This document shows, one piece after another, positions 6,002-42,462 of a stretch of DNA of 63,630 nt (position 1 is its first letter; each line of letters begins with the position of its first letter). The notes below the pieces were generated by a model, which saw nothing but the letters and a program-made list of their open reading frames with translations, was not told the DNA's origin and searched no databases. Where the stretch lies: NCBI GenBank assembly GCA_049515895.1, contig JBEKTQ010000017.1:1-63630 (forward strand), given 5' to 3'. The translations under genes and the position numbers were made by a program. The DNA comes from Candidatus Bathyarchaeia archaeon (GTDB taxonomy: Archaea; Thermoproteota; Bathyarchaeia; Bathyarchaeales; Bathycorpusculaceae).

Positions 6002-6915
6002 CCAAATTTGATGTTGTCGGCTTCGGAGCGCTAAACGTTGACACCCTTCTTAAAGTGGAGAAGCTAGCGAGAGCAGAGGAAGAAAGCTTCGTCGAAGATT
6101 ACACTGAATCCTGCGGCGGCTCAGCGGCAAACACTATTGTTGGGTTAGCTAGGCTCGGCTGCAAAGTTGGCTTCATAGGAAAAGTAGCGGGTGACCGCGA
6201 AGGCAAACTGCAAATTGACTGTTTCAACAATGAACGCGTTGATACGACAGGCATAATTCAGGCAAAGCAGGGAAAAAGCGGTTCAGTTTTGGGTTTCGTG
6301 GACAAGAAAGGTGCAAGAGCGCTATATATCAACCCAGGCGTCAATGACGCAATAGAGCCCCGAGAAATAAATTATGGGTATGTGTCCGAAACGAAGTTTC
6401 TGCATTACTCATCCTTTGTTGGAGAAAAATCCTTTCGAGCGCAAAAGAAGCTCTTAGGTGCCCTGCGCAGCGATGTCAAAATTAGCTTTGACCCAGGTTC
6501 AGTGTATGCACAGAAGGGTTTCGCAGCGATAGAACCAATAATTCGAAGTTCTTATGCCTTCATGCCTAACGCAATTGAGCTTGAACTTTTGACCGGAGAA
6601 GCCGATACCCGCAGAGGCGCAGATTTGATGATTGATGCAGGCGTTAAAATTGTCGCAGTAAAGCTTGGCGACAAAGGCTGCTACGTTACAGACGGACAAG
6701 AACAGCTGAGAATTGAGCCTTTCAAAGTTAAAGTCGTCGACACAACTGGCGCAGGGGACGCTTTCTGCGCGGGTTTCCTCTACGGGCTAATCCATGAGAA
6801 AAGCCTCTTCGAATGTGGACGCTTCGCCAATTTTGTTGCTTCGAGGTGCGTCACTGCGATGGGTGCCCGCGCGGGCTTGCCTTATGCTAAAGATCTACTG
6901 GCATTTTTTGGTTAG
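5998..6915 (+). CDS. PfkB/ribokinase-family carbohydrate or nucleoside kinase (EhaT-like)
   Basis: GGSAAN, GLARLG, FDPG, VVDTTGAGDAF; ATGA overlap with ftr. Confidence 0.9.
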   Translation: MTKFDVVGFGALNVDTLLKVEKLARAEEESFVEDYTESCGGSAANTIVGLARLGCKVGFIGKVAGDREGKLQIDCFNNERVDTTGIIQAKQGKSGSVLGFVDKKGARALYINPGVNDAIEPREINYGYVSETKFLHYSSFVGEKSFRAQKKLLGALRSDVKISFDPGSVYAQKGFAAIEPIIRSSYAFMPNAIELELLTGEADTRRGADLMIDAGVKIVAVKLGDKGCYVTDGQEQLRIEPFKVKVVDTTGAGDAFCAGFLYGLIHEKSLFECGRFANFVASRCVTAMGARAGLPYAKDLLAFFG

Positions 6916-7716
6916 ATTGTCGATTATGCTTTGGAAGATTAGTTTTCCGTCGCCATATTGAAGCATCTGCTGTTTGCGCGTCCAATCGGGTTGCTGCCAC
7001 CAATACATCGCCCTCTCTGGGTGAGGCATAAGCCCAAAAATGTTCCCTTCCCTGTTGCATAAGCCAGCAATGTCATAGAAAGAGCCGTTTGGGTTAGCTG
7101 GGTACTCACCGTCGGCAACTTTACCATCTTTGTCACAATAGCGGAAAACAACCATGTCCTTATCGACTAGTCCTGCCAGCAATTCTTCCTCTTTTTCTTT
7201 TGGAAACAATAGCCTGCCTTCTCCATGTGCAATTGGCATCCTCAACACTTTGCCAGAAGCGATTTTGTTTGTAAAGGCACATTTTCCACGGTTTTCATGT
7301 TTGAGATAAATCCACTGGCACTTGAAGCCTGCTGGCTCATTGTTCGTCAGGGTGGCCTCGGGGTAGGGACTCACTCCTTTGAATCCTGGTAGTAAACCGT
7401 ACTCGACCATTATTTGAAAGCCGTTGCATATGCCCAGAATTGGTCTGCCTTCGTCGATGAATGTTTCCATTTCTTTGCCTAACTTGGCGCTAAGATGCCT
7501 CGCGAAAATGACGCCTGATCGCACATAATCGCCAAACGAAAAGCCGCCTGGAAAAACCAGTACCTGATAATCAAGCAGGTTACGTAGTTTCGCCAGTTCG
7601 TTTACGTGCAAATTGTCGGCTTGGATGCCTAACTCTTGGAAGGCCCGCTGGGTTTCAGCGTCGCAGTTAGTTCCGCCAACACGCATAACACAGACTTTGA
7701 TTTCTTCCTGCTTCAT
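6895..7716 (-). CDS. purQ: FGAM synthase glutaminase subunit
   Basis: GTNCD, PGGFSFGD, GICNGFQ, IAHGEG, NPNGS, GLMPHPER. Confidence 0.97.
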   Translation of the reverse strand: MKQEEIKVCVMRVGGTNCDAETQRAFQELGIQADNLHVNELAKLRNLLDYQVLVFPGGFSFGDYVRSGVIFARHLSAKLGKEMETFIDEGRPILGICNGFQIMVEYGLLPGFKGVSPYPEATLTNNEPAGFKCQWIYLKHENRGKCAFTNKIASGKVLRMPIAHGEGRLLFPKEKEEELLAGLVDKDMVVFRYCDKDGKVADGEYPANPNGSFYDIAGLCNREGNIFGLMPHPERAMYWWQQPDWTRKQQMLQYGDGKLIFQSIIDNLTKKCQ

Positions 7717-10098
7717 TTAAAATTCTCCGCTCAACGTTTTCTTCCAGCTTCGGCGCAGCTCTGCAAGTGAAGCGTCAACGACAACTTTCATGTTTAGCCC
7801 GTTGACGACCAGTCGCTCGTCTTTGGTTACTTTGCCGATTTGGGCGCAAATTTTGTCTTTCATTTGTGCCTCAAAGTCTTCTCTGTCCTGCTCTGACACT
7901 TCGAGCAAGAAGCGGCTGTTGGACTCGGAAAACAATACAAAATCGTTACGCTCCAGGTCTCTGCCAGGAACTTTGCTTAAATCCAGCTGCAAACCGTAGC
8001 CGCCAGCAAAAGCCATTTCCGCCGCCGCCACCGCCAACCCGCCTTCGGAAAGGTCATGACATGACCTGATTAAACCCGAGTCTATGGACTTAGTTACTGC
8101 TCTAAATGTACGCTTGGCTTTGGCACCCTTAACTTTGGGAACGCTCGCGCCCAGGCAACCTTTGAGCTTGTAGTATTCCGAGCCTCCAAGCTCGTTGAAG
8201 GTTTCGCCTGTAATGTAAAGCAGGTTGCCTGGCGCTTTCAAATCCATTGAAGTGACAAATTGGAGATTTGGAACAACGCCTATCGCCGTAATAAGCAGCG
8301 TCGGCGTAACTGGACCCATCGGGGATTCGTTGTAAAGGCTGTCTTTACCTGAGATGAACGGTGTCTTAAACGCCACGGCAAAGTCAAAGCACGCTTCACA
8401 AGCTCGAACCAACGAGCCTAAACGCTCTGACTTCTCAGGGTTACCCCACGTAAAATTGTCAAGCAATGCAATTCTTCTTCCCCCCACCGCAACGTTGTTT
8501 CTCACTGCTTCGTCAATGGCTGAAGCTGCCATCCAATACGGGTCGATTTTGCCGTAATTCGGGTTCATGCCGCATGAAATCGCTAAGCCTTTCCAAGAAT
8601 TGTCAAGCGGTTTAAGGACGGTTGCGTCATTTGGACCAGCGTAGGCTCCTTGCAGAGGTTTAAGCGTTGTGTTGCCTTTGACTTCGTGGTCATAAGTGCG
8701 TATAATGCTTTCTTTGCTGGCGATGTTTGGTGCAGCAAGCAGCTGAAGCAGCGCTTCAGTCAGGTTTTCAGGAGCTGGAAACCGAGGTTCCGTGAAGGTT
8801 TGAGTTTCTATAGTTGCTGTTTTCATGCTTTTGCAAGGATTAAACAGGAAAGCCATGTCCATGTCAGCAACTGTCTCGCCGTTGAAATGGAGTTCTAGAC
8901 GGCGTTCAGCCGTGAGCCTGCCTATCGCCGTTGCCTCAACATCCTCTTTCGCAAAAACCGTCTTAACCCGCTCCAGGTTTTCAGGCGGAACAGTTATCAG
9001 CATTCTCTCTTGTGATTCTGAAATGTAAATTTCCCAGGGCGCTAAACCGCGATGTTTCAGCGGCACCTTGTCAAGGTCGATAGTTACTCCGCAGTTGAAT
9101 CTTTCTGCTGTCTCGCCTACGGCTGATGATAATCCGCCTCCGCCAAGGTCAGTTGTCGCCGACGCAAGTTGCAAGTCGCGGATTTCTATTAACGCCCGTT
9201 TCACTTTCTCTTCTTCAATGGGGTCGGCGATTTGCACTGCTGGACGGGAGATTTCCTCTGATTTCTCGGTCAATTCCGCGGAGGCGAAGGTAACGCCGTG
9301 GATCCCGTCGCGTCCCGTTTTTCCACCGGCCAAAACCACAATGTGTTCGGGCTTGGCGTTTTTTGTAAATTTTGCAAGAGGTAAGAGTCCTATGCATCCG
9401 CAATATACGATGACGTTGCCAGTGTAGCTTTCGTCAAAGTAAATGGCTCCGTTGACGGTGGGGATTCCCATGTTGTTTCCGTAGGCGCTTATGCCCGCCG
9501 TGACGCCCATGTAAACGTATTTTGGGTGCTTCACGCCAGCGGGAAGCTTGCTGTAATCGTAGTCGAGTGGTCCGAAGCCTAAAACGTCCGTGCAAGCAAT
9601 CGGGTCTGCCCAAACGCCTAGGATGTCTCTAATTACGCCGCCGACACCGGTGGCTGCTCCGCCGAAGGGTTCCACAGCGGATGGGTGGTTATGCGTTTCA
9701 ACTTTTGCCGCTATGCCGTAGCCTTGGTCGAAGCGGACGATGCCCGCGTTGTCTTCGAAGACGCTGAAGCACCATGGCGCCTTGATTTGTTTGGTGGCTT
9801 TTGCGATGTAGGTTTTGAAAAGGCTGTCAATTTCTTTTCCATCAAGAAGGATTTTTCCTTTGAAGGTCTTATGGTAGCAATGTTCTGACCATGTTTGACT
9901 GATTGTTTGCAGCTCCACGTCGGTAGGATTTCTTCCTTCGCATTTGAAGTACATTTGGATGCTCTTCATTTCTTCAAGGCTTAAGCCCAACGCTAATTCG
10001 TTGCTGGCTTCAGCAAGTTGCTGGTCGCTGGCATTGGCTAAAGCTGCTTCATAGAGAGCATAGTTCGTTTTGCGCGGCTGGTAAATGTCCGAGTTCAT
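7717..10098 (-). CDS. purL: FGAM synthase subunit PurL
   Basis: WSEHCYHK, ETHNHPS, GAATGVGG, SESQERM, SGKDSLYN. Confidence 0.97.
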   Translation of the reverse strand: MNSDIYQPRKTNYALYEAALANASDQQLAEASNELALGLSLEEMKSIQMYFKCEGRNPTDVELQTISQTWSEHCYHKTFKGKILLDGKEIDSLFKTYIAKATKQIKAPWCFSVFEDNAGIVRFDQGYGIAAKVETHNHPSAVEPFGGAATGVGGVIRDILGVWADPIACTDVLGFGPLDYDYSKLPAGVKHPKYVYMGVTAGISAYGNNMGIPTVNGAIYFDESYTGNVIVYCGCIGLLPLAKFTKNAKPEHIVVLAGGKTGRDGIHGVTFASAELTEKSEEISRPAVQIADPIEEEKVKRALIEIRDLQLASATTDLGGGGLSSAVGETAERFNCGVTIDLDKVPLKHRGLAPWEIYISESQERMLITVPPENLERVKTVFAKEDVEATAIGRLTAERRLELHFNGETVADMDMAFLFNPCKSMKTATIETQTFTEPRFPAPENLTEALLQLLAAPNIASKESIIRTYDHEVKGNTTLKPLQGAYAGPNDATVLKPLDNSWKGLAISCGMNPNYGKIDPYWMAASAIDEAVRNNVAVGGRRIALLDNFTWGNPEKSERLGSLVRACEACFDFAVAFKTPFISGKDSLYNESPMGPVTPTLLITAIGVVPNLQFVTSMDLKAPGNLLYITGETFNELGGSEYYKLKGCLGASVPKVKGAKAKRTFRAVTKSIDSGLIRSCHDLSEGGLAVAAAEMAFAGGYGLQLDLSKVPGRDLERNDFVLFSESNSRFLLEVSEQDREDFEAQMKDKICAQIGKVTKDERLVVNGLNMKVVVDASLAELRRSWKKTLSGEF

Positions 10099-10346
10099 TG
10101 CCGCTCCTCAAGAGTTACAGTGTAGTTGTCTTTGGTTGGGTTTGCGAGAAGGCGTTTGCTCATCTCTTCCGTTTTCGTCTTTGCTTCTTTAATTGTTGCT
10201 GCGTCAAGTGTGACGGTGTAGACTTTGCTTACGTCTACAGCTTCTACTTTGTAGCCGAGTTCGTTTAGCAGACGAGCTGTTGTTTCTCCTTCAGGGTTGC
10301 TATGGCCTGGTTTGAGGCTAACTTCGATTTTGGCTCGGTATTTCAT
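10095..10346 (-). CDS. purS: FGAM synthase subunit PurS
   Basis: LKPG..NPEG and LLANP motifs, 83 aa, overlaps the purL start. Confidence 0.92.
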   Translation of the reverse strand: MKYRAKIEVSLKPGHSNPEGETTARLLNELGYKVEAVDVSKVYTVTLDAATIKEAKTKTEEMSKRLLANPTKDNYTVTLEERQ

Positions 10347-10405
10347 AAATCCTTTAAATTATGCATAGGGGATTTAAACGCTTTCGTCATGAAAAAAGCA
10401 AAGTT

Positions 10406-11485
10406 TTACGTCAAAACCAGCCTTTTGTTTTTGTACTTTATTTCGACGGTTTGCTTATCAGTTATTTTGCCTATTATTTCGGGCTTTGCGCCCTCGTTCT
10501 CCAGAGTGCTCATTGCTTTGTCGGCTTCCGTTTTGTCAATGATTATGCCGAAGCCCCATCCCATGTTAAACGTTTTGAACATTTCCTCGTCAGAAATGCT
10601 GTAGTCTAGTTCGGCGGCGGTTTTTTGGATTAATCCGAATATGGGTTGTGGTCTGAAGTTGGTAAATTCAAATCCTATTCCATTGGAAAAATTAGCCAGG
10701 TTGTTGAATTTCATGTAGGCGTCACCTGTGATGTGGATTGCTGCTTTGACTTTGACTTTTTTGGCTAACTTGAGAATCGGCTTAACATAGATTTTTGTCG
10801 GCTCAAGCGTTTCAAGCACGATTTCCCTGTCCAAGCCGTCTGGGACATCACTCGGCTGATATTTTCCTCCCCACTGCTTAAACAGGATTTTTCTTACCAT
10901 TGTTAAGCCGTTGCTGTGCAATCCGCTACTTGGTAAGCCGATTATTGGGTCTTCCGGTTTGATATTTTCGCCCGTTATAATTTCTTGCTTCTCAACAGTG
11001 CCAACCGAGGCCACTACCATGTCAAAGCCTGCGTTGTCCACAACACCTTTTATTATTTCTGCAACGTCGCCTGTTTCACCGCCTGTAACTGGGCATTCCG
11101 CTTCAGAGGCGCCTTGAATAATTCCTTTGAGCCACTCTCTTACAAGGCGAGGTTCACTGGCTTGCGCATGAATGTTGTCGGCTATTGCGAGTGGTCTAGC
11201 TCCTGAACGAATTATATCGTTGACGGCCATCGCTACCGCGTCAATCCCTATTGTGTCATATTTCCCTGCCAGTTGAGCCAGAAGAACTTTTGTGCCCACA
11301 CCTTCGATAACGAGGTCCAAGAAGGTGTTTTCTCCAACTGGAAAAATATTGCCGTAGGGTAAACGCATCACGTTGCCAAAGTGGCTATGCTTGTAGGTTT
11401 CTTGCAGGTCTTTTAGGACTTTTTTTGATTCGACGCGTTGTTGCCGGTTTACGCCTGCGTCGGTGTAAGTGTAATTTTTAGGCAA
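10406..11485 (-). CDS. purM: AIR synthetase (phosphoribosylformylglycinamidine cyclo-ligase)
   Basis: YTDAGVN, EGVGTK, GGETG, SSGLHSNG, HITG, TFNMGWG. Confidence 0.96.
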   Translation of the reverse strand: MPKNYTYTDAGVNRQQRVESKKVLKDLQETYKHSHFGNVMRLPYGNIFPVGENTFLDLVIEGVGTKVLLAQLAGKYDTIGIDAVAMAVNDIIRSGARPLAIADNIHAQASEPRLVREWLKGIIQGASEAECPVTGGETGDVAEIIKGVVDNAGFDMVVASVGTVEKQEIITGENIKPEDPIIGLPSSGLHSNGLTMVRKILFKQWGGKYQPSDVPDGLDREIVLETLEPTKIYVKPILKLAKKVKVKAAIHITGDAYMKFNNLANFSNGIGFEFTNFRPQPIFGLIQKTAAELDYSISDEEMFKTFNMGWGFGIIIDKTEADKAMSTLENEGAKPEIIGKITDKQTVEIKYKNKRLVLT

Positions 11486-11552
11486 GCTGTTGTTCCTCGG
11501 GTATTCTTTCTGTTTTGTCAGAAATAACGCTTATGCTTATCTCGTAGCACAA

Positions 11553-11921
11553 TCATGTTTTGCTGGTTTTTTGGCCTATCAATTCGAGAGGTTCTTGAGG
11601 TTTAACAGGCTTCAGGAGATAGGCGTCTGGGTGAGCGCTTTTGTTATCCATTGTTGGAAAACCTGTAATTACGATTTTAACCATTTTGCCTCTTGGGTCA
11701 GCTAGTTTATGCAAAAGGTCCATTCCATTCATATCTGGAAGACAAATATCAATCAGGGCAACGTCATAAGCTTTGCAGTATGCTTTTTGAATTGCATCTT
11801 CCCCAGTTTGGGCAGTGTTAGTTTGACACCCGTTTTTCTGCAAGATGCGCGAAAATGTCCGGGTTATGTTTTCGTCGTCATCGATAATTAAGATGTTAAT
11901 GTTTGCTTTATCCAAATTCAT
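11553..11921 (-). CDS. Single-domain response regulator receiver
   Basis: ILIIDDD, LIDICLPDMNG (phospho-Asp), ITG, LLKP. Confidence 0.88.
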   Translation of the reverse strand: MNLDKANINILIIDDDENITRTFSRILQKNGCQTNTAQTGEDAIQKAYCKAYDVALIDICLPDMNGMDLLHKLADPRGKMVKIVITGFPTMDNKSAHPDAYLLKPVKPQEPLELIGQKTSKT

Positions 11922-12066
11922 TTTCCATCCCAAAAAATGAACTGCCCATAATGGTTTTTTACTTCCGCATTCAGTTTAAGAACTATTATTACTGAAATGG
12001 AATACTCAAATAAAAAGTAATATATTGTCCCGAACCCAACAAAAGCAAGCCTGAGGTAAAAGGCGT

Positions 12067-28040: not shown

Positions 28041-28188
28041 AAAACCCAAATGAACCGCAGGATGTTATAAACATGTTTACTGCTTGAAAAAACGCGTTTT
28101 TGAAGAGCCCAACACTGCTTTTGCCTTTTTTATTCGTCCTTTTGAACTTTCCCCTTTGCTCACGCTAAATGAGATTTAGTGTAGGCTT

Positions 28189-28327
28189 GACTTTTTTCGA
28201 CTTTTATTGACTTATTTTGACTTTTTTAGACTTATTTGGACTTTTACAGACTTTTTTAGACTCAACCTGCAAACGCAGCAAGCCCCAAATCAAAAAAGCA
28301 ACCCAAACCACAAAGAAAAAAATTGCG
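28189..28327. repeat. Dispersed element copy B: 8 units with exact 10-bp period (GACT at 28189 ... 28259) plus conserved ~65 bp tail
   Basis: gacttttttc/gacttttatt/gacttatttt units; tail homologous to 854-918. Confidence 0.85.
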
Positions 28328-28432: not shown

Positions 28433-29194
28433 GTGCCACTTGCGTTTGTTATCGGAACAGCCGGCTCAGGCAAATCCCTTTTTACTGCAGCGTTTAGTGA
28501 ATGGTTGAAGATGTCAAAGCAGGACGTTGCCGTCGTCAACTTGGACCCTGGAGCCCTTAAGCTTCCTTACTCGCCTGATGTTGACGTCCGCAACTACGTT
28601 GACGTCGGCGACTTAATGGAGAAATACGCCTTAGGACCCAACGGTGCCTTGATTATGGCGGCTGATCTGATCGCTGACGAAATCGAAAACCTGAACCGCG
28701 ACATCGAGGAAGCACACGCCGACATCGTCCTGGTAGATACGCCCGGTCAGATGGAGTTGTTCGCTTTCAGGGCAAGTGGACCATACATTGTTGACGAGTT
28801 AACCAAGGAGCCTAAAGCCCTAATCTACCTGTTTGACGCCGTATTCTCAAATAACCCGATGAACTACGTTTCAAACATGTTTCTCTCCGCCGCCGTTTAC
28901 AACCGATTCTTCCACCCGCAACTGCATGTTCTCTCAAAAACCGATTTGCTTCCGAAGAAGGACGTACAAGCGATCGCTTCTTGGTCAGCTAACCCCCGAG
29001 CGCTCGAAGACGCGATCGAAGAGAAACTGGAGGGCACAAAACGCCTCTTCAGCCGCAACATGATGCAGGCAATTAACAGGCTGGGCTTGACTTTTCTGCT
29101 TATGCCCGTTTCCTCAAAAACCAACGAAGGCATGACCAACATCAACACTACGCTTGAGCGGATCCTTAACGAAGGCGAAAAATACACCACTTAA
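28433..29194 (+). CDS. GPN-loop GTPase
   Basis: GTAGSGKS, NLDPG, LGPNGA, DTPGQME, SKTD. Confidence 0.95.
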   Translation: MPLAFVIGTAGSGKSLFTAAFSEWLKMSKQDVAVVNLDPGALKLPYSPDVDVRNYVDVGDLMEKYALGPNGALIMAADLIADEIENLNRDIEEAHADIVLVDTPGQMELFAFRASGPYIVDELTKEPKALIYLFDAVFSNNPMNYVSNMFLSAAVYNRFFHPQLHVLSKTDLLPKKDVQAIASWSANPRALEDAIEEKLEGTKRLFSRNMMQAINRLGLTFLLMPVSSKTNEGMTNINTTLERILNEGEKYTT

Positions 29195-30263: not shown

Positions 30264-30452
30264 CTTATCCCTATTCTTGTTGTGCTCCATTGGGGTTAAA
30301 ATTGTTTTTTGCCTAGAAGCAAGCCCTAGATTTCGTTTATTAGATGCTTATCTTGTAGAAAGATTTTTAAGAAAAACGGCAGGTATCTTATGTTCCTACC
30401 ACATACCAGAGGTACCTACCGCTTTTCAGACACTTTCAAGGAAGTGTAACCC

Positions 30453-31436
30453 ATGAAAACAGAAGAAATCTTACAGAATCCACAAGCACAAGGCATATCA
30501 CCCACATACTTAGCCGAAGCCGAACAAGCAATCAACAAAACAGTGGAACAAACCTTAGCAAACGGAAAATGGCTTGAAAAACGCTACCGCTCAAACCAAC
30601 TAAGCAGACTCAGACGACTCGCAAAACACACAGACATATTCGACGGAAACAAAGTTCACGCCTACATACAAGCCATAAAACTCAAAAACAAAACAGACGC
30701 AACAGACAACTTCAAACTCGGATTAGAAAACACCTACGCACACTTCGCAGAAGTCAACAACATAGCATTTAAAGTCGTCAACCTACAAAAGAAATCACCA
30801 ATACCAATCATACCATCAACAGACGACGTAAACCTAATTCTATATTCACTACCGCTAAAATGGTATGTACCACTCGCAATAATGGCAAAAACAGGAGCAG
30901 AAGCACGAGAACTACAACTCACCAAGCAAAACCAAATCAACCAACAAACAGGACAAATCAGCATAATAGGCACCAAAAAACACGACAACGGACTATACAC
31001 ACTTGAACCCGACTTAGCTAAAGCACTAAGAAACTACTTAGCAACACACACAGAAGAATACCCATTTCCAGACCCAAGAAACTTAGGCGACGCATGGCGA
31101 CGAGCAAGAAACCAAAAAGCAGAAGAACTAAACAAACCAGACCTCAAAAAAGTACCCATGAAAAACCTACGCAACTACGCAGGCGCAGTATTCTACCTAA
31201 CAATGGGCAAAGACCCAATCGCAACAAAAAACTTCATGCGACACAAACGATTAGAACAAACAATGGACTACCTACGAGGAATACCAGAATTCATGGCGAC
31301 ATCAAAGAAAATAGGAAAAATCGTAAGCACAGCCGAAGAAGTATTAGACCTAATACTACAAGGCTTCAAAGAAGAAGCCATAATCCAACAAGGAACACCA
31401 CAAGAAAAACACATACTATCAAAAGTAAACGTATGA
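30453..31436 (+). CDS. int: Tyrosine recombinase/integrase
   Basis: KTGAEARE (box I, atypical), GTKK, KNLRNY, FMRHKRLEQTMDY (His...Tyr). Confidence 0.85.
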   Translation: MKTEEILQNPQAQGISPTYLAEAEQAINKTVEQTLANGKWLEKRYRSNQLSRLRRLAKHTDIFDGNKVHAYIQAIKLKNKTDATDNFKLGLENTYAHFAEVNNIAFKVVNLQKKSPIPIIPSTDDVNLILYSLPLKWYVPLAIMAKTGAEARELQLTKQNQINQQTGQISIIGTKKHDNGLYTLEPDLAKALRNYLATHTEEYPFPDPRNLGDAWRRARNQKAEELNKPDLKKVPMKNLRNYAGAVFYLTMGKDPIATKNFMRHKRLEQTMDYLRGIPEFMATSKKIGKIVSTAEEVLDLILQGFKEEAIIQQGTPQEKHILSKVNV

Positions 31437-31590
31437 TAACCACAGTAAGGAATCCCTATGATACTACCAACATACGTAACAAGTCCAGACTACAACCTAA
31501 CCAAAGATGAGGTAACAACACTCATCAGAATAATGCAAGCCAATCCACTCAAAGCTGTCTTTATCAACCAAATTTTGCGGTTCGCTCTGC

Positions 31591-31660
31591 TCGCTACGCT
31601 CGCAACCGCTCCCACGACAACAAACACAATTAGAAAAACAAAGAAAGCACCAAGAGAAAA
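31591..31660. repeat. Cassette-boundary repeat R1
   Basis: cgctacgctcgcaaccgctcccacgacaacaaacacaattagaaaaacaaagaaagcaccaagagaaaa. Confidence 0.88.
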
Positions 31661-31762
31661 CAAACGAAACCCCAACAAAAACAGACAAGCCCAAGTTTTT
31701 TAAGCGCGCACGCTAAGGAACGCAAAGAGGCTTGATATATAGGATAATGGGAAAGCCTCGAT

Positions 31763-32149
31763 TTACTTGAAAAAAAGTGGGTAAATGAACCTTAGTGCTA
31801 AGTAAGTGGTGAGAACCCAGATAGAGACAATCAAGCATGCGATAACCCATTTAGTTCTCGTTCTAATATGTTCAACTTTTGCTTTCAGTCGATATTCTTC
31901 CATCACATTCTTCGGTATCAACTTAATAACAAACGAAATGCCAGCAGGCACAATTATCAAATCATCTATTAATCCTATTACGGGTATGAAGTCTGGAATA
32001 AGATCAATTGGGCTTATTGCATATCCTATAGTCAAGCCTCCAAGCACCTTTGCATACCAAGGAACTCTTCGGTCTTTTATCGCTAGGCAGACCGCATAAA
32101 CTTCCATCTTTAACCGTTTTGCTTTTTCTTTCCAAGACTCTTTTGGCAT
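31763..32149 (-). CDS. YkvA/DUF1232 family membrane protein (cargo)
   Basis: PWYAK, YAISPIDLIPDFIPVIGLIDD. Confidence 0.92.
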   Translation of the reverse strand: MPKESWKEKAKRLKMEVYAVCLAIKDRRVPWYAKVLGGLTIGYAISPIDLIPDFIPVIGLIDDLIIVPAGISFVIKLIPKNVMEEYRLKAKVEHIRTRTKWVIACLIVSIWVLTTYLALRFIYPLFFK

Positions 32150-32284
32150 TTCACATGGTTCTATGACAGGCACCAATTTAAGACAATCGTTTCAGGGATT
32201 ACCATCATATGAAATTCTTTCTTATGTTGGGTCACTTAACTTAACAGTATCCCCCTTGACAAACCTTTTTAAGCGTCGTTCTCG

Positions 32285-32354
32285 TCGGCTTCGCTCCGAA
32301 CCGCTCCAACGACAACAAAACAATTAGAAAAACAAAAAGAGCACCAAGAGAAAA
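32285..32354. repeat. Cassette-boundary repeat R2
   Basis: cttcgctccgaaccgctccaacgacaacaaaacaattagaaaaacaaaaagagcaccaagagaaaa. Confidence 0.88.
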
Positions 32355-32462
32355 ACCTAAACAAGCTAAAACAAACACAAAGGTAATCGAAAATACAATG
32401 ACTTAATTGATATTCAATTCCCAAACCCCAAAAAGTAACAATTTTCACAATAACGAATTTTT

Positions 32463-33251
32463 CTATATAAACTCGTTTTTTGATACTCCAACAAAGATTA
32501 CGCTTAATATTGCCAAAATAATCAAAGGCATACCTATTATCATTCCAGAGTACCAAGCCCCCGCGAATATTCCAAACTCCAAAAACGAAAAGAATCCCGC
32601 TACTAATAGAAGGCTTATGCCGACAATGGACAACGCAAAGTGGTTTCGCTTAATCGAGAATATTCCTCCTGCAAGCCCTAAACCAAAAGCGATAAAATTC
32701 CATATTCCAACAAAAAGAGCAAAAACCAAGTAAGTCAAGTTTTGTTGGAAATAATATAAGTTAGTATAACTTGCTGCCTGTGCTATTGCTAAGAATGCAG
32801 TAAAGATGGTAAAGCTTGCAGTAATTATTGTTAAGATTCCCCCTGCTATAGGAAAACCAGTCTTATGCAGCGTTTTTGCTTCGGGGGTAGTGTAGGATTT
32901 AGTTGGCTCCTCACTAACGCGGGCATTTTCAAATAAATCCTGTTTCTCTTGATCAAGGGACTTGTTCCATAGAGAAAAGATCGCATAAATCACGGAACCT
33001 GCCATAATCATAAATCCAATCACGATGAACATTTCTGACAGGGGATTGTACAAACTGATTTTTTGTGATTGATACCCATTTAGAGACGCTTGATCCGACG
33101 CTATTTGGGCATCCGTTAATCCGTTCCCCTGAAGTTGAAACTGTAAACCCGCAATTTCTGAATTAATGATTAAATTGATCGCAAGACCACCAATCAGAAA
33201 AACTGCACCTATAGCAAAAATTGGAGCGAAATCTTTCCAATTCATAGCCAT
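32463..33251 (-). CDS. Multi-pass membrane protein (cargo)
   Basis: About 6 hydrophobic helices; own TATA-like box upstream on the minus strand. Confidence 0.8.
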   Translation of the reverse strand: MAMNWKDFAPIFAIGAVFLIGGLAINLIINSEIAGLQFQLQGNGLTDAQIASDQASLNGYQSQKISLYNPLSEMFIVIGFMIMAGSVIYAIFSLWNKSLDQEKQDLFENARVSEEPTKSYTTPEAKTLHKTGFPIAGGILTIITASFTIFTAFLAIAQAASYTNLYYFQQNLTYLVFALFVGIWNFIAFGLGLAGGIFSIKRNHFALSIVGISLLLVAGFFSFLEFGIFAGAWYSGMIIGMPLIILAILSVIFVGVSKNEFI

Positions 33252-33316
33252 AGCGCTCTATTTGTAAGCGTCAATATAAAAAATCGACGGTGTTTAACAA
33301 TTTTCAGCACGCGCTT

Positions 33317-33367
33317 TCGTCGCTTCGTTCCGAACCGCTCCACGACAACAAAAACAATTAGAAAAAC
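33317..33367. repeat. Cassette-boundary repeat R3 (shorter)
   Basis: cgtcgcttcgttccgaaccgctccacgacaacaaaaacaattagaaaaac. Confidence 0.85.
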
Positions 33368-33529
33368 GTGGGCTACCCAAAAAAGGAGTCGTAAAGCGTC
33401 GGTAAAAGCTATAATGAACTTAGCAAAACAATTTCACTTTCACTTCTCTCCTCTGCTCCAATTGTATCATTATTCGCGTGTTTTAAATAGCCCTTGCGAA
33501 AATAACGCTGAATTGGGGAGATAATCAGC

Positions 33530-33946
33530 ATGTCCTTCAACCATGAATTTAAAACCCCTTCTGTAGATGTGTCAAGAATTTTTGGGTTTCAGATAACTGC
33601 GTTTCCACCAGTCAAGCCAAAATTTACAAGTTTAGAACGGAGCTTTAATGCGATTGACCTCAAATTTTATGAAGATGGACAAGGAGGATATTACTTGGAA
33701 AGAATATCCTCACCTCTTGAAGCAAAGGTGATTTTATCTCCTAACCTCTGGGATGAAGGAACGAAAAATTGTGAACTCACCTTTACTTATACTGACTTGG
33801 ACTTAAAATATAATCAAAGAAAAGAAGTAGTAGAATTTGGAGAAGATATTTCTTCCCTAATAAATTGGAAGCACAAGATTGTTTGGTTCACCGATGATGG
33901 TGATGTTACCGTTTGGAAAAACAGCGATGAAAAAAGAACAAAATAA
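33530..33946 (+). CDS. Hypothetical cargo protein
   Basis: 138-aa ATG ORF with ggggag upstream; composition not skewed. Confidence 0.6.
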   Translation: MSFNHEFKTPSVDVSRIFGFQITAFPPVKPKFTSLERSFNAIDLKFYEDGQGGYYLERISSPLEAKVILSPNLWDEGTKNCELTFTYTDLDLKYNQRKEVVEFGEDISSLINWKHKIVWFTDDGDVTVWKNSDEKRTK

Positions 33947-34105
33947 CTCTATTCACAAGACGAGAATCAATTTCGCAAAGCAAAACAACATCAACCAAAT
34001 AACACTCTGCAAAGACTGCGTAACTCAAACCCATATCAACCTCAAAAGAAAAATACCAGTATCTTACACAGAGGACTGTTAAAGTCTTTAGAATAGTGAT
34101 GTTGG

Positions 34106-34489
34106 ATGAATCTAATTGAGATTGCAACTCTTGTGGCTGCGGTTGGTTCTGTGATTGCTGCCGTCACAGGTATTATAGCTCTTTACAAAACATCTAGAGA
34201 GGAAAAAAATCATTTTGAACTTCTAAGGGGAACCAATCCTCCAGAACCTCCAAATGCCAAATTGGGACTAGTGATTTCTCACCCGACAAAACCCATAGAC
34301 GAGTGCAGAGTATTCTATAACAAAACTGCCCTCAATATTGCACAAAGCAATCCAATTAGACAACATACGTACATACATGTTGGCGGTATGGCAGTATATC
34401 GCCTACCTGAAAATGTTGACGACAATGGAAAAATCACGGTAAAAGATGGAAAAACGACACTTCTAAAAATCAAGCTTGGAAAAATTTAG
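34106..34489 (+). CDS. Hypothetical protein with N-terminal TM helix
   Basis: 127-aa ORF with hydrophobic N-terminus. Confidence 0.65.
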   Translation: MNLIEIATLVAAVGSVIAAVTGIIALYKTSREEKNHFELLRGTNPPEPPNAKLGLVISHPTKPIDECRVFYNKTALNIAQSNPIRQHTYIHVGGMAVYRLPENVDDNGKITVKDGKTTLLKIKLGKI

Positions 34490-34652
34490 ATACTCCAGAT
34501 TTTTTACATATCAGATGAAATTTCACATTAACCACGAATCCAAATAGAGACTTTACAGACCCCCAGTTCTAAAACGCCAAAGATGTTAAAAGCTGCACAA
34601 AAGACCAACCAGCTAAAGAAAATATCAAAAAACCAAATATGGGGAACATAAT

Positions 34653-35138
34653 ATGCCTCAAAAACGAAAATTCACAGACCAACAATTCTTAGAACTATAC
34701 GACAAAAACTTAAGCTTAGGGCAAATAGCAGAGATTCTGAAGGTATCAAAAGCCTCCGTCTGGAGAAGAATGGTCAGGCTCAAAAAAATGCCTAAAAAAC
34801 CACAAGGCAAATCAAACCTTGAATTAAGCCTCGAAAAACTAAGAGCTAACGACAAAAAACAAAACCAAAAGCCAGAGAGGTTAGCAGCAAAAAAAGCCTA
34901 TGGCAAAGAATACCAGAAAGAATACTATAAAAGACCTGAAGTGAAAACCAGAAGACAAGCCCAAAGGAAAGTCACAGAGCACTCAGCAAAAAGAAAAGAA
35001 TATAAAAAAAACTACAATAGAGACTATTATAAACGACCAGAAGTCCAAGCCAAACGGAAAGCCCGTCAGCAAACACCAGAGAATAAGCAAAAGAGAAAAG
35101 CAGCCTACTTGAAAAAACGTGAAACTGCACCCGTTTAA
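34653..35138 (+). CDS. HTH DNA-binding protein with basic repeated tail
   Basis: SLGQIAEILKVSKASVWRR helix-turn-helix; YYKRPEV occurs twice. Confidence 0.75.
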   Translation: MPQKRKFTDQQFLELYDKNLSLGQIAEILKVSKASVWRRMVRLKKMPKKPQGKSNLELSLEKLRANDKKQNQKPERLAAKKAYGKEYQKEYYKRPEVKTRRQAQRKVTEHSAKRKEYKKNYNRDYYKRPEVQAKRKARQQTPENKQKRKAAYLKKRETAPV

Positions 35139-35546
35139 AACTAATAAACAATAAGCCGATACGCAAAGCCGTTTACGCAAAACCGACAAACGCACAGCCA
35201 ACAAAACAAAGGGGAAGAACAACCCAAAACGACCAAAAAACCCGAGAGACCAGTTACCAAATGACCAGCACACCGCCAATATAGAGCACGCTTAAAGGTG
35301 CTCTCAATCAACATAACGGCGAATGACAGTTCGTCGCAGACATAAACCCCATGATTTTTGCCAAGAGAGCAAATGGCGAAAATCAAAAATCATGGCGTAT
35401 TTTGGAATTCTGGTATGCCGTAACTCGGCAATCCTTCAAATTCCAAAAGGTTTATTGTCTGCTCCTCAAAATGCTCCCCACAGTATCCCAAGCCGTTCGC
35501 AATTCCTAAACCTTGCTCACTTCGGCTTGAGAAAAATCCGTTTTCC

Positions 35547-36104
35547 ATGAAAACAGACCGCCCTGATGGGCTTTTTTCTCAATCCTCTCTTGGAATAGTG
35601 CTCGCAGAAAAGGGGATGAGCAAAGAGCGTGAGCTACAAATGCACGTAAATAGATTAAAAACCGTAAGCGAGTACAAATTCCCACAAAAGTTTTTTTCAA
35701 AGAACGTCAAAGCAACGTATTGGATAAGCATCCTATACGAGCACCTTAGAGAACGAGGAACACAAAAATCGTTCGAAAACCCAAATTGGCACGCAACTCA
35801 CCAGAACTTCAACTACTACATTCCCGAAGAAAGCACGTTCCCAAGCAGAATCAGACGACAAATTCCCGATACTTCAGGACTCCAAAAATGGAGAAACCGC
35901 CAAATCATCAACGACAAAGTAGCACCGTACAAACGGTACCCACTCATAGACGACTACTGCCCCTACTGCACAGGCGAAACAGGCGCAACGCCGACAGGAA
36001 CAGCTTGGTACATCAAACTACCTGAGAAACGAGATGACCCATGCGCCAACTGCCCAATCTACAACGAACTACAAGAAGAACGGGAACGGTTAGCCCAAAA
36101 CTAA
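35547..36104 (+). CDS. Hypothetical element protein with C-terminal zinc finger
   Basis: CPYC...CANC; A/C-skewed codon use. Confidence 0.65.
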   Translation: MKTDRPDGLFSQSSLGIVLAEKGMSKERELQMHVNRLKTVSEYKFPQKFFSKNVKATYWISILYEHLRERGTQKSFENPNWHATHQNFNYYIPEESTFPSRIRRQIPDTSGLQKWRNRQIINDKVAPYKRYPLIDDYCPYCTGETGATPTGTAWYIKLPEKRDDPCANCPIYNELQEERERLAQN

Positions 36105-36209
36105 CCGACCTTTTTTATGAGAGGCAACTGCGAAAAAAATAGAGGAATTTCCCAAGGGTTGAGGAAATTCCCTCAAAACAAAAAATTAAATGGAGTGTGA
36201 AAAGAAAAA

Positions 36210-36419
36210 ATGACTCAAGAAGTAGAATCTGAGTTTAGAGGAAACGTACAAGTGTACGGTAGCAACCCATCCGAAAATATCGGGAACGCAAAACTGTTCA
36301 AGGTGAAACAAGAACAAGGAAAGAACCAGCCATGCCTAAAGGGATACGTAGCAATAGACCCAGCTAAACTCGTTAAGAAAGCAGACGGAAAACTGTACGC
36401 AAATATCAACTTCTGGTAA
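36210..36419 (+). CDS. Small beta-rich protein, possibly ssDNA-binding
   Basis: 69 aa, ggagtg upstream; LFKV...KNQPCLKG pattern. Confidence 0.55.
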   Translation: MTQEVESEFRGNVQVYGSNPSENIGNAKLFKVKQEQGKNQPCLKGYVAIDPAKLVKKADGKLYANINFW

Positions 36420-36904
36420 GTGGTAGCCCTATGAGAGCCTACCACTACCAGCCAACGAGCGGGAGCAAATCACTACCACGCAAAGGAGTAACAAAACGGG
36501 AAAACCCGAAACAGAACACAGAACACAAAACAAAACAAAAAAACAATAGGGGTACCCTTAACAAGACATCCAGAAATCAGCCTCAAACGATGAATTCCAG
36601 AAGCAAGCGTAACGCAGTCACCCACCAAAAAAGTGAAGCGACAGCGCACCCCTCAGACATAACCAAGAATAGTCAATACCCCCGTAAAATCCACCAGCCA
36701 AACCAAACAGAGGGAGACAGCAGGCTCGCCCGCAGTAAGAGGGCAAAAGACTGTAAGTTGAAGCCGCGTCCCCTCCAAAAACCTCCAATTTTAGTAAAAA
36801 TAAAATCTCAGCCGAAGTGCTCCCCTCTGGTCGAGGGAGCACAGGCGAGAACGCAGTAAGAAAGGCAAAACTAAAAGGAAGTAAAAAATGATGGAGTTGA
36901 AAAA

Positions 36905-37135
36905 ATGGATAAAGAATTAAGAGAAATAGACTATCGGGTACACCCTTCAAGTATAGAGCAGAACTACAAGTCAAAAGCAGAAACAATATGCAACGACTGT
37001 AACTCCGCTCAACTCAAAGAGGTATGCCCGATACTCAAGGCAAGCCAAAGGCGAGCCAAATATCCAGAAAACCTGTCCAACAGAAACGGAGAAGATATGA
37101 AGAATACCTTAAAAGGAAGTATAGCAAATGAATAA
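36905..37135 (+). CDS. Small Cys-containing hypothetical protein
   Basis: CNDC...CP; ggagttga upstream. Confidence 0.5.
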   Translation: MDKELREIDYRVHPSSIEQNYKSKAETICNDCNSAQLKEVCPILKASQRRAKYPENLSNRNGEDMKNTLKGSIANE

Positions 37136-37223
37136 AGAAGAACAAAAGATACTACAAATCTATAATGCCTTCTATGGCAGGTATCTTATGTTCCTATAAC
37201 AACTTGAATGGAAAAAGATTCCT

Positions 37224-39408: not shown

Positions 39409-39612
39409 TTATTTCTTGCTAAGCCACCATTTCAGGTATTCTTTTCTGCGGTTCTGTCTTTCTTCTTCCTCTGTTTCTTCTGCTGGCCTGTTCTTGTCTC
39501 GCAAATCATTTAGTTCCTGCTGTGTGACTGATAAACCGCAGCTTTTACAGATATAGTGCTTAGTGCCTATCTCGTAATGCATTTCTCCGCCACATTCAGG
39601 ACAATAGACCAT
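39409..39612 (-). CDS. Small zinc-ribbon protein
   Basis: CPECGG...CKSCG, C-terminal YLKWWL. Confidence 0.75.
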   Translation of the reverse strand: MVYCPECGGEMHYEIGTKHYICKSCGLSVTQQELNDLRDKNRPAEETEEEERQNRRKEYLKWWLSKK

Positions 39613-39826
39613 TTTACCTTTCTCTTCGCGAATTTTATAGGTTAATCGCCGTAGCAGAGATATTAGTCTTCGCCTTGAATTTCCTTTTTCCGCAGGTTTC
39701 TCTTCCTAAAAAAGCATCCATCTATTCTTTTCAAGTAAATGCCTTTTTCAAAAAAATATATCTTAAATTTTCAAAAAGCTTTTTAATAAAGAAACAAATG
39801 CAAGGGGTAATACATCAACTTGAGGA

Positions 39827-40405
39827 ATGAAAATGAGCGACGAACACTTTAAACTGGCTAACCCTGCCCCACTGGGGCTGCTGGGTTTCGGCTTAACCAC
39901 CGTTCTGCTTAATCTTGTAAATGCCGGCGCCTTTCCTTTGGATACAATGATTTTAGCCATGGGCATTGCATACGGGGGAGTCGCACAAATTATCGTCGGC
40001 GCCATGGAATTCCGCAAAGGTAACACTTTCGGCACCGTCGCGTTCACGTCCTACGGCTTGTTCTGGTGGAGTTTTGTCATGCTTCTGATTCTGCCAAAAT
40101 TCATCGGGTTTGCCGCTCCATCCCCAGCTTCATTGTCCGCGTACTTCATAATGTGGGGAATCTTCACCTTCGCAATGTTCTTTGGCACACTGAAAGCTAA
40201 CCGTGCACTGCAACTCGTGTTCATGAGCTTAACTGTTCTGTTCTTTCTGCTGGCTGCTGCTCAATTCGCCGGAAGCGCTACGTTCACAAAGATCACAGGC
40301 GTCGAAGGCGTCATATGTGGTTTTAGCGCCATATACCTTGCGGTTGCAGAAATCCTAAACGAATCGTATAAAAAAACTATGCTGCCGATTTATCCGACAA
40401 GCTAA
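39827..40405 (+). CDS. satP: Acetate uptake transporter (SatP/YaaH/GPR1-FUN34 family)
   Basis: [28 protein letters not shown]. Confidence 0.95.
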
Positions 40406-40503
40406 AATCCGTCCAAGTTTTTCCATTTTTCATTGTGAAAATGAGAAAAGGTTTATATTCTCTAGGGAGGAGCGTTTCGAAACAAACCTGAGGTTGAGTT
40501 GGA

Positions 40504-42462
40504 ATGTCGGAAACTAGTCTGCCTTTTTATGAGAAATATTATCCTAGCAGCGCAAAGATTTCTTCTGGAGAAAAACGAAAACAAGACTGGGAAAAATCAA
40601 TTAAGGATCCCCAAGAATATTGGCGAGAGAAAGCTAAAGCCATCGACTGGTTTAAGCCGTTCAGTAAAGTTCTTGATGATTCTAACCCGCCTTTCTACAA
40701 GTGGTTCCCTGATGGAGAACTGAACATTTCTTACAACACGCTGGATAGGCATGTAAACAGCCATCGAAAGAACAAGCTTGCCTACATTTGGGAAGGTGAA
40801 ATGGGTGAAGTAAAAACTTACACTTACTATCAACTGTACCGCGAAGTAAACAAGCTTGCAAAAACATTCAAAAACCTCGGAGTTGAAAAAGGCGACCGAA
40901 TTGCAGTTTACCTTCCAGTTATTCCGGAGCTGCCGATAACCTTATTGGCAGCCGCTAGGATCGGTGCAATTCACACAGTGGTTTTTTCCGGCTTCAGCGC
41001 AGAAGCCTTGGCTGATAGAGTTAACAACTGCGGTGCAAAAATCTTGGTTACCGTAGATGGATCTTTCAGGAGGGGAAAGGTGGTCGCTATCAAGGACACT
41101 GGAGACAGGGCACTAACAAACATGCCAAGCGTTGAAAAGGTTATAGTTGTTAAACGAACGGGCCAGCCTGTTCAGATGATGGAAGACAGAGACGTTTGGT
41201 ATAGTGAGGCTCTTACAAGTGCAGGCGCGAATGCCTATGTGAAGCCGGAAAGCATGAAATCGACTGATCCATTATTCATCCTTTACACTTCTGGAACTAC
41301 AGGCAAGCCGAAAGGGGTCCAACACGCTATAGGTGGATACCTTGTTTGGGCTTACTGGACGTCCAAGTGGGCTTTCGACCCAACTGACGAAGACATCTTT
41401 TGGTGTGTTGCAGACATCGGCTGGATCACTGGTCACACATACAACGTTTACGCACCCTTAAGTTTGGGGGTTACCGCGTTACTTTTTGAAGGCACACCTG
41501 ATTATCCCGCGCAAGACCGATGGTGGGACATAATTGAAAGACATGGAGTAACCATCCTTTACGCCACGCCAACTGCGATTCGGATGTTCATGAAATTCGG
41601 AGAACAATGGATAACAAAACATGACCTCACCTCCCTGCGGCTATTGGGTTCAGTGGGTGAACCTATAAACCCTGAAGCTTGGAAATGGTACTACCGCGTG
41701 GTAGGCAAAGAAAAACTCCCCATAATTGACACATATTGGCAAACAGAAACCGGTGGCTCCATGATAGCAGCAGCTTCTGGTATAGAACTCACGCCGCTCA
41801 AGCCAGGTTCAGCGACATTCCCAATGCCATCTGTCAACGCTGACATCTACGATGAAAAAGGACAACCCGTCCAAGCAGGCACCAAAGGCTTTCTCGTGAT
41901 CAAATCATCGTGGCCTGGAATGCTGCAGACGCTGTGGAAAGACCCAGAAAGATTCAAACAAACATATTTCGGCAGGTGGCCAGGAATATACTACACCGGC
42001 GACTTTGCAATCCGAGACCCTGAAGGATACTTCTGGCTCCTAGGCAGAGCTGACGAAGTCCTAAAAGTTGCAGGACACCGCATCGGCACCGTAGAACTTG
42101 AAAGCGCATTAGTTTCGCACCCAGCCGTTTCAGAAGCAGCCGTAATGGGAAAAGAGGACGCCGTCAAAGGCGAAGTTCCCGTCGCGTTCGTAACTTTGCG
42201 AAGCGGTTTCACACCATCGGAGGAACTTGTCGCAGAGCTGATTAAGCATATCAGAACCACAATCGGTCCGATAGCAACCCCCGAAGCAATCATCATTGTG
42301 AACAAGCTTCCAAAGACACGCAGCGGCAAAATAATGCGCAGACTGCTCAAAGCTGTATTAGTTGGGGCGCCGCTGGGTGATGTGTCAACGCTTGAAGACG
42401 AAGCCTCAATTGAAGACATAAAAGCAACTTATAGTGAACTGCGAAAGCAGCTTACTAAATAA
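40504..42462 (+). CDS. acs: AMP-forming acetyl-CoA synthetase
   Basis: LYTSGTTGKPKG, VGEPINP, DTYWQTETG, LPKTRSGKIMRR. Confidence 0.97.
   Translation: MSETSLPFYEKYYPSSAKISSGEKRKQDWEKSIKDPQEYWREKAKAIDWFKPFSKVLDDSNPPFYKWFPDGELNISYNTLDRHVNSHRKNKLAYIWEGEMGEVKTYTYYQLYREVNKLAKTFKNLGVEKGDRIAVYLPVIPELPITLLAAARIGAIHTVVFSGFSAEALADRVNNCGAKILVTVDGSFRRGKVVAIKDTGDRALTNMPSVEKVIVVKRTGQPVQMMEDRDVWYSEALTSAGANAYVKPESMKSTDPLFILYTSGTTGKPKGVQHAIGGYLVWAYWTSKWAFDPTDEDIFWCVADIGWITGHTYNVYAPLSLGVTALLFEGTPDYPAQDRWWDIIERHGVTILYATPTAIRMFMKFGEQWITKHDLTSLRLLGSVGEPINPEAWKWYYRVVGKEKLPIIDTYWQTETGGSMIAAASGIELTPLKPGSATFPMPSVNADIYDEKGQPVQAGTKGFLVIKSSWPGMLQTLWKDPERFKQTYFGRWPGIYYTGDFAIRDPEGYFWLLGRADEVLKVAGHRIGTVELESALVSHPAVSEAAVMGKEDAVKGEVPVAFVTLRSGFTPSEELVAELIKHIRTTIGPIATPEAIIIVNKLPKTRSGKIMRRLLKAVLVGAPLGDVSTLEDEASIEDIKATYSELRKQLTK

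Follow-up and report, generated by a model that had tools for sequence, protein, structure and literature searches.

A repeated non-coding module organises the cargo slot of a family of small integrative elements in one Bathyarchaeial genus

How does a small archaeal element come to carry single foreign genes, each set between copies of one non-coding repeat? The question is raised by a 63,630-nucleotide stretch of a Candidatus Bathyarchaeia archaeon genome (GenBank assembly GCA_049515895.1, contig JBEKTQ010000017.1, positions 1 to 63,630; hereafter the window), in which a tyrosine integrase gene (int) is followed by three directly oriented copies of a repeat that we call R. A first reading of the sequence, the original prediction, had likened this array to an integron and proposed a distinct site-specific gene-capture system on a small archaeal integrative element. 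Bathyarchaeia are abundant and uncultured, and to our knowledge their small mobile elements are barely described. We find that the window element is a 6.8-kb member, without a rep-like gene, of a family of small integrative elements in one Bathyarchaeial genus, and that the cargo of this family gathers at a hot spot organised by R as a repeated cis-module. This organisation appears to be new: in a literature search of partial coverage we found no publication describing the element family or R, and the parts of a Bathyarchaeia virus survey that were available to us contain neither ‘rolling’ nor ‘HUH’ (PMC10848311).

The element is an insertion between a RidA-like gene and metK, and its edges are a perfect 21-bp direct repeat (Table 1). 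Contigs from one peat metagenome run join position 30378 straight to 37213/37214, so the empty site exists in related populations. The array itself is unchanged in fragments from two further studies and in a 14-kb metagenome contig that is 99.986% identical (L163), and no RNA run was among the listed sequencing runs that carry the element. Relatives in named records are titled Candidatus Bathyarchaeota or Bathyarchaeia. The att repeats, the empty-site contigs and these relatives bear out the idea of a small archaeal integrative element.

Exactly one open reading frame (ORF) lies between successive R copies, first a DUF1232 (YkvA-family) gene and then a gene for a protein with six hydrophobic segments, here the six-transmembrane (6-TM) gene. 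Residues 127–261 of the latter have a 43%-identical homologue in the cargo slot of the element in genome G099. The two ORFs that follow R3 have no R after them. Both bracketed genes are on the minus strand and of ordinary composition, their AT skew being -0.03 (ykvA) and +0.10 (6-TM gene), and the two ORFs after R3 are similar (0.10 and 0.18). R shares the skew of the backbone: int has +0.53, R2 +0.46 and the backbone at 34653-37170 +0.44. GC content rises from the cargo (0.35-0.39; ykvA 0.38) through the backbone (0.41-0.43) to the host flanks (0.47-0.49). By composition, the cargo is foreign to the skewed backbone around it. In these respects the original prediction, three repeats that each part one minus-strand cargo gene of normal composition, described the locus accurately; its repeat size of 50–70 bp was too small.

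Repeat detection delimited a three-copy direct family (31593-31638, 32288-32333 and 33322-33367), with a 38-nt extension that is 92% alike in copies 1 and 2, and a three-way alignment gave an unbroken conserved block. A 25-nt core of R, searched with up to three mismatches, matched twice against 0.00 matches expected from 100 shuffles; copy 2 escapes this search because of a 1-nt indel. R is about 105 nt long, since a covariance model (sequence-only, trained on eight copies) places full units of that length, and over the window the model found no R besides R1, R2 and R3. A profile search of the whole genome (3.18 Mb) returned five R copies, the next nhmmer match having an E-value of 8.1. The two copies beyond the window are on contigs C6 and C7, away from any integrase.

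Each unit is built of four parts. An AT-rich left box, which on the minus strand of R1 and of the C6 and G075 copies reads TTGATAA and is changed in R2, R3 and the C7, G013 and G047 copies, is followed by four to six GCTNC pentamers, the last ending in GAACCGCTCC; an A-rich tract and a conserved GAGCACCAAGAGAAAAAC box complete the unit. The TTGATAA form may resemble nick sites of Rep_1/microvirus-type origins. The heptamers GCGTAGC, GCGAAGC and ACGAAGC, earlier read as mini-hairpins typical of single-stranded folding sites, do occur on the minus strands of R, but they bring about no fold better than shuffled sequence: DNA folds of both strands of the three copies gave z-scores of -0.88 to +1.29 against 200 shuffles, and the alifold consensus of R reached -0.49 kcal/mol. 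We found no inverted repeats, terminal inverted arms or inverted core sites at R, and Rfam returned nothing on R and two sub-threshold matches elsewhere in the window. The AGGTATC-type core of the element’s att sites is absent from R; what the two have in common is a TATC-type tetramer or hexamer, and we rejected this likeness as evidence of a link.

The integrase has zero Pfam matches, matches NCBIfam XerA far under that model’s cut-off (7.3e-8) and matches a PHROG integrase family at 1.8e-6. A profile built from 12 homologues places it more clearly, since among PDB structures it retrieved XerA (4a8e, 1.7e-22; 5hxy, 2.4e-18) with IntI4 behind (2.2e-14), and the catalytic Lys, Arg II, His and Tyr (K175, R240, H264 and Y273) are invariant and in order in the 12 homologues. 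By its sequence profile, and recognisably by profile alone, it is a Xer-like tyrosine recombinase. The remaining catalytic arginine, Arg I of the TGxRxxE box, is canonical in four of the 12 and missing from the box in seven; in the window protein it sits two positions away, as R152. Elements of the family have clean att duplications despite this non-conserved Arg I. Across the genus, 26 of 120 genomes carry integrase homologues at E≤1e-15. One further record, L167, has a 70% identical integrase C-terminus under the title of a Limnocylindrales bacterium, a title or binning that may be wrong.

None of this makes the system an integron. The integron-integrase model TIGR02249, whose cut-off is 265 bits, scored 17 and matched residues 57-200 alone, so that the protein has no IntI signature. 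The attC box GTTRRRY occurs in none of the three R copies, flanks included, and RYYYAAC has one unpartnered occurrence in the flanks of R2 and one in those of R3; the lack of an IntI-like signature and of the attC palindrome had been noted in the original prediction. Neither an IntI signature nor attC boxes nor a significant fold is present, and R is missing from many cargo boundaries: the array resembles an integron in layout but is not one.

The relatives reveal what the layout of the family is. A strict R pattern (≤3 mismatches) had no match in 40 relatives, and a profile model was needed; the R model then matched in 21 of the 120 genomes. The common order is an integrase gene on the plus strand, one R of about 105 nt on the same strand, and a convergent rep-like gene on the minus strand, and the order is kept in 9/9 loci that have all three. 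Of the 16 R-bearing loci from relatives, 13 carry R downstream of int and co-oriented with it, as do the window and the metagenome contig L162; 10 of these 13 integrase-linked loci have a single R. Same-strand clusters of R within 5 kb occur in five of the 120 genomes, namely the window genome G000 (three copies), G072 (three), G049 (two and a weak third), G104 (two) and G130 (two), and L162 provides a sixth array. All six begin 15–1070 nt downstream of a homologous integrase, on its strand.

What lies between the copies is different in six of six arrays. In contrast to the two membrane-protein candidates of the window, G072 holds a BglII-family endonuclease and a DUF4145 protein, G104 a beta-helix secreted protein, G130 a multi-TM protein, G049 a PT-rich secreted protein, and L162 a 938-amino-acid Eco57I/MmeI-type restriction-modification enzyme; orientations are mixed in G072 and G049. 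The same repeat family therefore stands next to homologous integrases and flanks different cargo in variable number, order and orientation, so that the check named in the original prediction came out positive.

The interval between int and rep acts as the slot in which this variation is concentrated. The elements of G072, G099 and L162 occupy one chromosomal site and have integrase regions that are 92-96% identical, yet everything that follows the int stop codon is wholly different, as far as the rep-proximal R or the rep module. The comparison of L162 with G099 is the sharpest: 92% identity runs through int, nothing is alike in the interval, and 98% identity resumes 16 nt before the rep-proximal R. 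Defence-type genes occupy the slot at 4490-8336 in L162 and at 8026-9496 in L108 (G072:C1). Elsewhere it holds a CAP12/Pycsar-type TIR domain gene and an AAA_15/OLD-like ATPase gene (L112, G104:C4, 7676-10920), which stand on the two sides of one R, and a HicA toxin gene (L060, G075:C9, 13106-14056). Cargo also sits directly at the int stop codon without an intervening R in G075 (HicA), G072, L162 (DUF3800) and G104:C4.

The copies away from any integrase add a further context. On C7 (L064, about 39533-41945), R stands at the right end of a 2.4-kb insertion whose site is empty in 11 relatives. The insertion encodes two secreted proteins rich in Pro and Thr (GC skew -0.75) and has, near 39940, a tRNA-like T-arm fragment; by its sequence it looks like a decayed remnant of an element of this family. 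On C6, R comes after a gene for a small membrane protein; close homologues of this gene elsewhere (74-83% nucleotide identity) have no R. Wider scans added little. An R-pattern scan of metagenomes returned 19 stretches, mostly short GC-rich chance matches, with L162 the sole new array. Among the others, L155 is a full-length model match (E 9.9e-28) and probably the same organism’s C6 copy, L159 and L160 equal the G074 copy in score and model span, and L145 and L146, on a contig that has neither int nor rep, are partial (E 3.5e-9, model positions 23-87). A scan of genome contigs for relatives gave five loci, four of them already among the loci known, and a weak match in G075:C47 (E 0.0067) was dropped, as it was absent on a second scan of the loci. 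In IMG/VR viral contigs, the patterns used found no relative of the rep-like protein and no match to R.

A second trait unites the family. The A/C-rich strand is constant over the whole backbone, whichever strand codes, with AT skew up to +0.6 and GC skew to -0.4 (regions 30400-31750 and 34500-37200 of the window, and 7000-12000 of the reverse complement of L026, G013:C20). As a result of this skew, the integrase is written in A/C-rich codons and the rep-like protein in G/T-rich ones. Independence from the coding strand points to a mutational cause, single-strand exposure, and an A/C-rich backbone strand would fit repeated single-stranded exposure of the other strand, a lead towards rolling-circle replication. 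The rep-like proteins are consistent with that lead: the family keeps zinc clusters and SPHxHxLGF and YQLxH motifs in 12 sequences, protein atlas searches pointed to Rep_1, the IS91 zinc domain (Zn_Tnp_IS91, weak) and G2P clusters, and an AlphaFold model of the protein had four matches at E≤1e-3 in BFVD, where the top 50 rows include five with a name, each of them a microvirus replication protein. Single sequences had no Pfam or PHROG match, and a sequence profile against the PDB gave nothing relevant. On these motifs and this predicted fold, the protein is probably an HUH-type rolling-circle initiator, an assignment that we treat as a lead.

The window element has no such gene, as three rep-like proteins used as tblastn queries found no match in the window, and R is retained in it as in the Rep-less element of G049. 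The same genome does hold a second element of the family (contig C35, L169, 566-8059), made up of part of an integrase, 4.8 kb of cargo, a minus-strand rep-like gene (6013-7083) and another integrase-like ORF. Its cargo includes a 460-amino-acid protein that, read by eye, appears DNA-methyltransferase-like.

Where did the copies of an array come from? For none of the 15 array copies is the best-scoring relative in its own array. R1 is nearest to the C7 copy, R2 and R3 are nearest to the C6 copy, and the G104 copies are nearest to those of G013. This excludes recent local duplication; the copies came from elsewhere. Some record the exchange within themselves. In G072, copy 1 corresponds to the left half of a site like R1 of the window and copy 3 to its right half, and the switch falls in a conserved block, at ..CTCGCA|ACCGCTCC... 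A truncated copy in G049 stops where the G072 switch lies, and truncated halves of R end right after the pentamers. This coincidence indicates recombination in or beside the most conserved block of R. A GC-rich box behind a T-run at the boundary of backbone and cargo in the window may likewise be a truncated R fragment, and similar boxes stand at cargo boundaries of G075, G072, G130 and C6.

The anatomy of the arrays, their recurrence, their differing cargo and the separate ancestry of their copies are direct observations; the route of recombination and the native role of R we infer as follows. Natively, R would most likely serve as origin and/or terminator region for a replicon of the rolling-circle type, as its place beside rep and the analogy to SNJ2 (below) suggest. 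The int-to-rep interval is the cargo slot of the family, in which foreign genes of ordinary composition gather, many of them defence, membrane or secreted proteins. Each R of an array would have come from another element or cassette together with cargo of its own, by recombination within or beside R, and R would supply a portable homology on which elements that share a host, or follow one another, exchange genes. The most likely means would be general (homologous) recombination, with related elements pairing at their R copies. We thus regard R as a cis-acting backbone module and the arrays as products of modular shuffling similar to that of PeSL, a reading to which we give an even chance and which we prefer to the others.

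Several observations weigh against this preferred reading. R is undetectable in 11 of 27 related loci, and in the C35 element, the sole Rep-bearing element of the genome, it is missing even with filters off. The copies are about 75-93% identical over 50-110 nt, a tract both short and diverged by the standards of homologous recombination, and the split sites of G072 suit a fixed crossover point equally well as exchange in the most conserved block. No joints of an R1/R2 or R2/R3 deletion or circle occur in contigs of four runs, although contigs drop rare variants; an apparent joint of 31576 to 32288, and loose ends at R, belong to other copies (C6, C7 and a G075-like organism) and were rejected as variants. 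The replicative role of R is also less than secure. Pfam Rep_1 matched one of 12 rep-like members, under cut-off (E 0.0073), a Foldseek search of the AlphaFold model (pLDDT 68.6) against the PDB gave zero matches at E≤0.001, the BFVD matches have low TM-scores (0.2-0.27, and 0.24-0.27 for the four at E≤1e-3), and R types do not track Rep types, which lends no support to a Rep-specific origin.

A dedicated capture system, mediated by Int or Rep, would explain the arrays differently. It would be an invention independent of integrons, in which the Xer-like integrase or the HUH Rep brings in and cuts out single genes, frequently ones for defence, at a fixed point beside GAACCGCTCC and R is a true recombination site, double-stranded or of iteron type, without IntI or attC. 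Because the switch points fall in a block common to all R types, homologous and dedicated exchange are inseparable from these data. The distinct site-specific capture of the original prediction is possible at best, since R shows neither a fold better than shuffles nor a link to the integrase, is mostly single-copy, is missing from many cargo boundaries and is absent from C35; we hold such a system to be a minority option, clearly behind homologous shuffling. The integrase version, which we think unlikely, has gene-plus-R circles inserted at the resident R next to int, leaving hybrid R copies on both sides. It would account well for the uniform position of the six arrays behind int, for single genes bracketed by directly oriented copies in the window, for the separate ancestry of array copies, as known for attC sites, for the attL/attR-type hybrid appearance of the G072 copies with their switch at one short conserved block, and for the gene-plus-R unit at C6 and the R that closes the C7 insertion. 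Yet R has neither the AGGTATC-type core nor inverted core sites, about half of the cargo boundaries are without R (int to cargo in G075, G104:C4, L162 and G072; cargo to backbone in the window), and the prevalence of single copies, the loss of Arg I from seven of the 12 integrases, the R-less cargo of C35 and the lack of excision joints all speak against it.

The Rep version seems to us somewhat less probable again. Here R would be a rolling-circle origin at which aberrant initiation or termination, or strand transfer, joins foreign DNA, so that cargo is left between origin copies in the manner of IS91/ISCR or Helitrons, and Rep-less elements would be replicated in trans. R does lie just downstream of rep in all nine complete loci, as the SNJ2 origin does in the parts of that report we could consult (PMC13107129), the skew ignores the coding strand and its G/T-rich strand is the rep-sense strand, the pentamers look iteron-like, truncated halves stop right after them, and Rep-less elements keep R. 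Against this stand the identity of Rep, which is just a lead, the altered TTGATAA box in five copies, an R subtype that does not follow Rep subtype and the absence of R from the genome’s only Rep-bearing element; moreover, directly repeated functional origins should be unstable, whereas the array is identical in four runs, one from each of four studies, and in L163. Finally, R could have nothing to do with cargo gain: it might be a selfish repeat similar to a miniature inverted-repeat transposable element (MITE), the product of tandem duplication in place, or a likeness due to chance. The C6 and C7 copies away from any integrase would suit this, but a genome-wide MITE, which the original prediction had named as a rival, fails on numbers: five copies in 3.18 Mb. 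R also has no terminal inverted repeats, and its chance expectation is 0.00. The conserved int–rep position of R, the lack of a single array copy nearest to its neighbour, and a C7 copy at the end of what looks like an element remnant make this explanation very improbable.

Comparison with known systems places the element between several of them. Canonical integrons have been reported in Archaea, according to the parts of the report seen (PMC9668308). The likeness consists in a tyrosine recombinase gene followed by directly repeated non-coding sites that part single foreign genes, in sites of one array that differ in ancestry and in cargo that varies between relatives. By contrast, the cargo here lies in both orientations and has its own upstream AT-rich boxes, and R occurs besides as a backbone module, present once between int and rep. 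IS91/ISCR elements and Helitrons use an HUH-type enzyme and capture genes beside an origin- or terminator-like end. The putative HUH-type enzyme, a capture by an origin-like end and the weak Zn_Tnp_IS91 lead would recall them, but the present family integrates through a tyrosine recombinase, which duplicates att, and no ori/ter pair of ends was identified in it. A further comparison is with the SNJ2 pleolipovirus and the Rep-Arvir family, rolling-circle replicons of archaea that integrate and whose origin, in the sections accessible to us, follows rep (PMC13107129). They combine, as these elements appear to, a tyrosine integrase and a rolling-circle initiator with a conserved non-coding element just downstream of rep. 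The Rep-Arvir protein is Rep_trans-like with a MarR domain, whereas the one here is rich in zinc fingers with HUH-like motifs; R has no significant hairpin, and repeated origins that bracket cargo are not described in those sections (PMC13107129).

The closest parallel in gene exchange is PeSL of T4-type phages, where, as far as the available parts of two reports go, promoter-terminator modules flank single genes in hyperplastic regions (PMC2839356; PMC4122927) and recombination deletes, inserts or replaces genes and gives mini-circles with chimeric modules (PMC2839356). In both systems conserved non-coding modules flank single accessory genes that are replaced between modules in close relatives (here in the six arrays and in L162 versus G099), and chimeric modules mark the points of exchange. 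The carriers differ, an integrative archaeal element here and a lytic phage there, and a promoter or terminator role of R is putative. R is also confined to one int–rep slot rather than many regions, and mini-circles have been seen for PeSL.

The family unites a divergent integrase, a probable rolling-circle Rep, an extreme strand asymmetry that is likely among the strongest in a cellular genome, and a single cargo slot. The genes traded there encode restriction enzymes, TIR proteins, OLD-like ATPases, a HicA toxin and membrane proteins. The repeated R offers a concrete handle, testable by polymerase chain reaction, on how archaeal elements swap accessory genes. Were the exchange site-specific, it would amount to a second, independent invention of cassette capture.

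Table 1. Features of the integrative element in the window
Feature	Position	Strand	Description and evidence
attL	30379..30399	.	left copy of the perfect 21-bp direct repeat, read directly
Integrase	30453..31436	+	divergent Xer-like tyrosine integrase, 327 aa; profile-level matches
R1	31557..31662	+	covariance model 87.5 bits, E 5e-26
GC-rich box after T-run	31690..31712	+	like the start of the GC-rich part of R, at backbone/cargo boundary; possibly a truncated R
Cargo 1	31763..32176	-	DUF1232 (YkvA-family) membrane protein, 137 aa; Pfam DUF1232 4.3e-14; phrog_14750 4.1e-20
R2	32252..32361	+	covariance model 77.6 bits, E 5.8e-23
Cargo 2	32463..33251	-	262-aa protein with six hydrophobic segments; no family (Pfam, NCBIfam, PHROGs)
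R3	33295..33395	+	right third diverged; covariance model 65.9 bits, E 2.7e-19
Cargo ORF	33530..33946	+	138 aa; no families
Cargo ORF	34106..34489	+	127 aa, one TM segment; no families
Backbone HTH protein	34653..35138	+	161 aa, helix-turn-helix; Pfam HTH_11 1.1e-5
Remaining A/C-skewed backbone	35139..37176	+	small ORFs of unknown function; no families
attR	37177..37197	.	right copy of the 21-bp direct repeat; metK (37224) just downstream

Beyond the cargo, the helix-turn-helix protein of the backbone is 46% identical to L051 by tblastn, and homology to the G049 element restarts at the start codon of its gene (blastn span 34650-34895). The metK/RidA neighbourhood is also used by a related element in G130 (L110, G130:C15; 7344-7610 and 14765-14980), which interrupts the RidA-like gene itself. 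Between R3 and the 138-aa ORF, the minus strand at 33454-33505 matches the SAM/SAH riboswitch family at 24.4 bits against a gathering threshold of 40 (E 0.039), which is probably chance. Outside the element, eight head-to-tail 10-bp units (TTGACTTTTT-like) at 28187-28266, unrelated to R, lie upstream of a GPN-loop GTPase gene (28433-29194).

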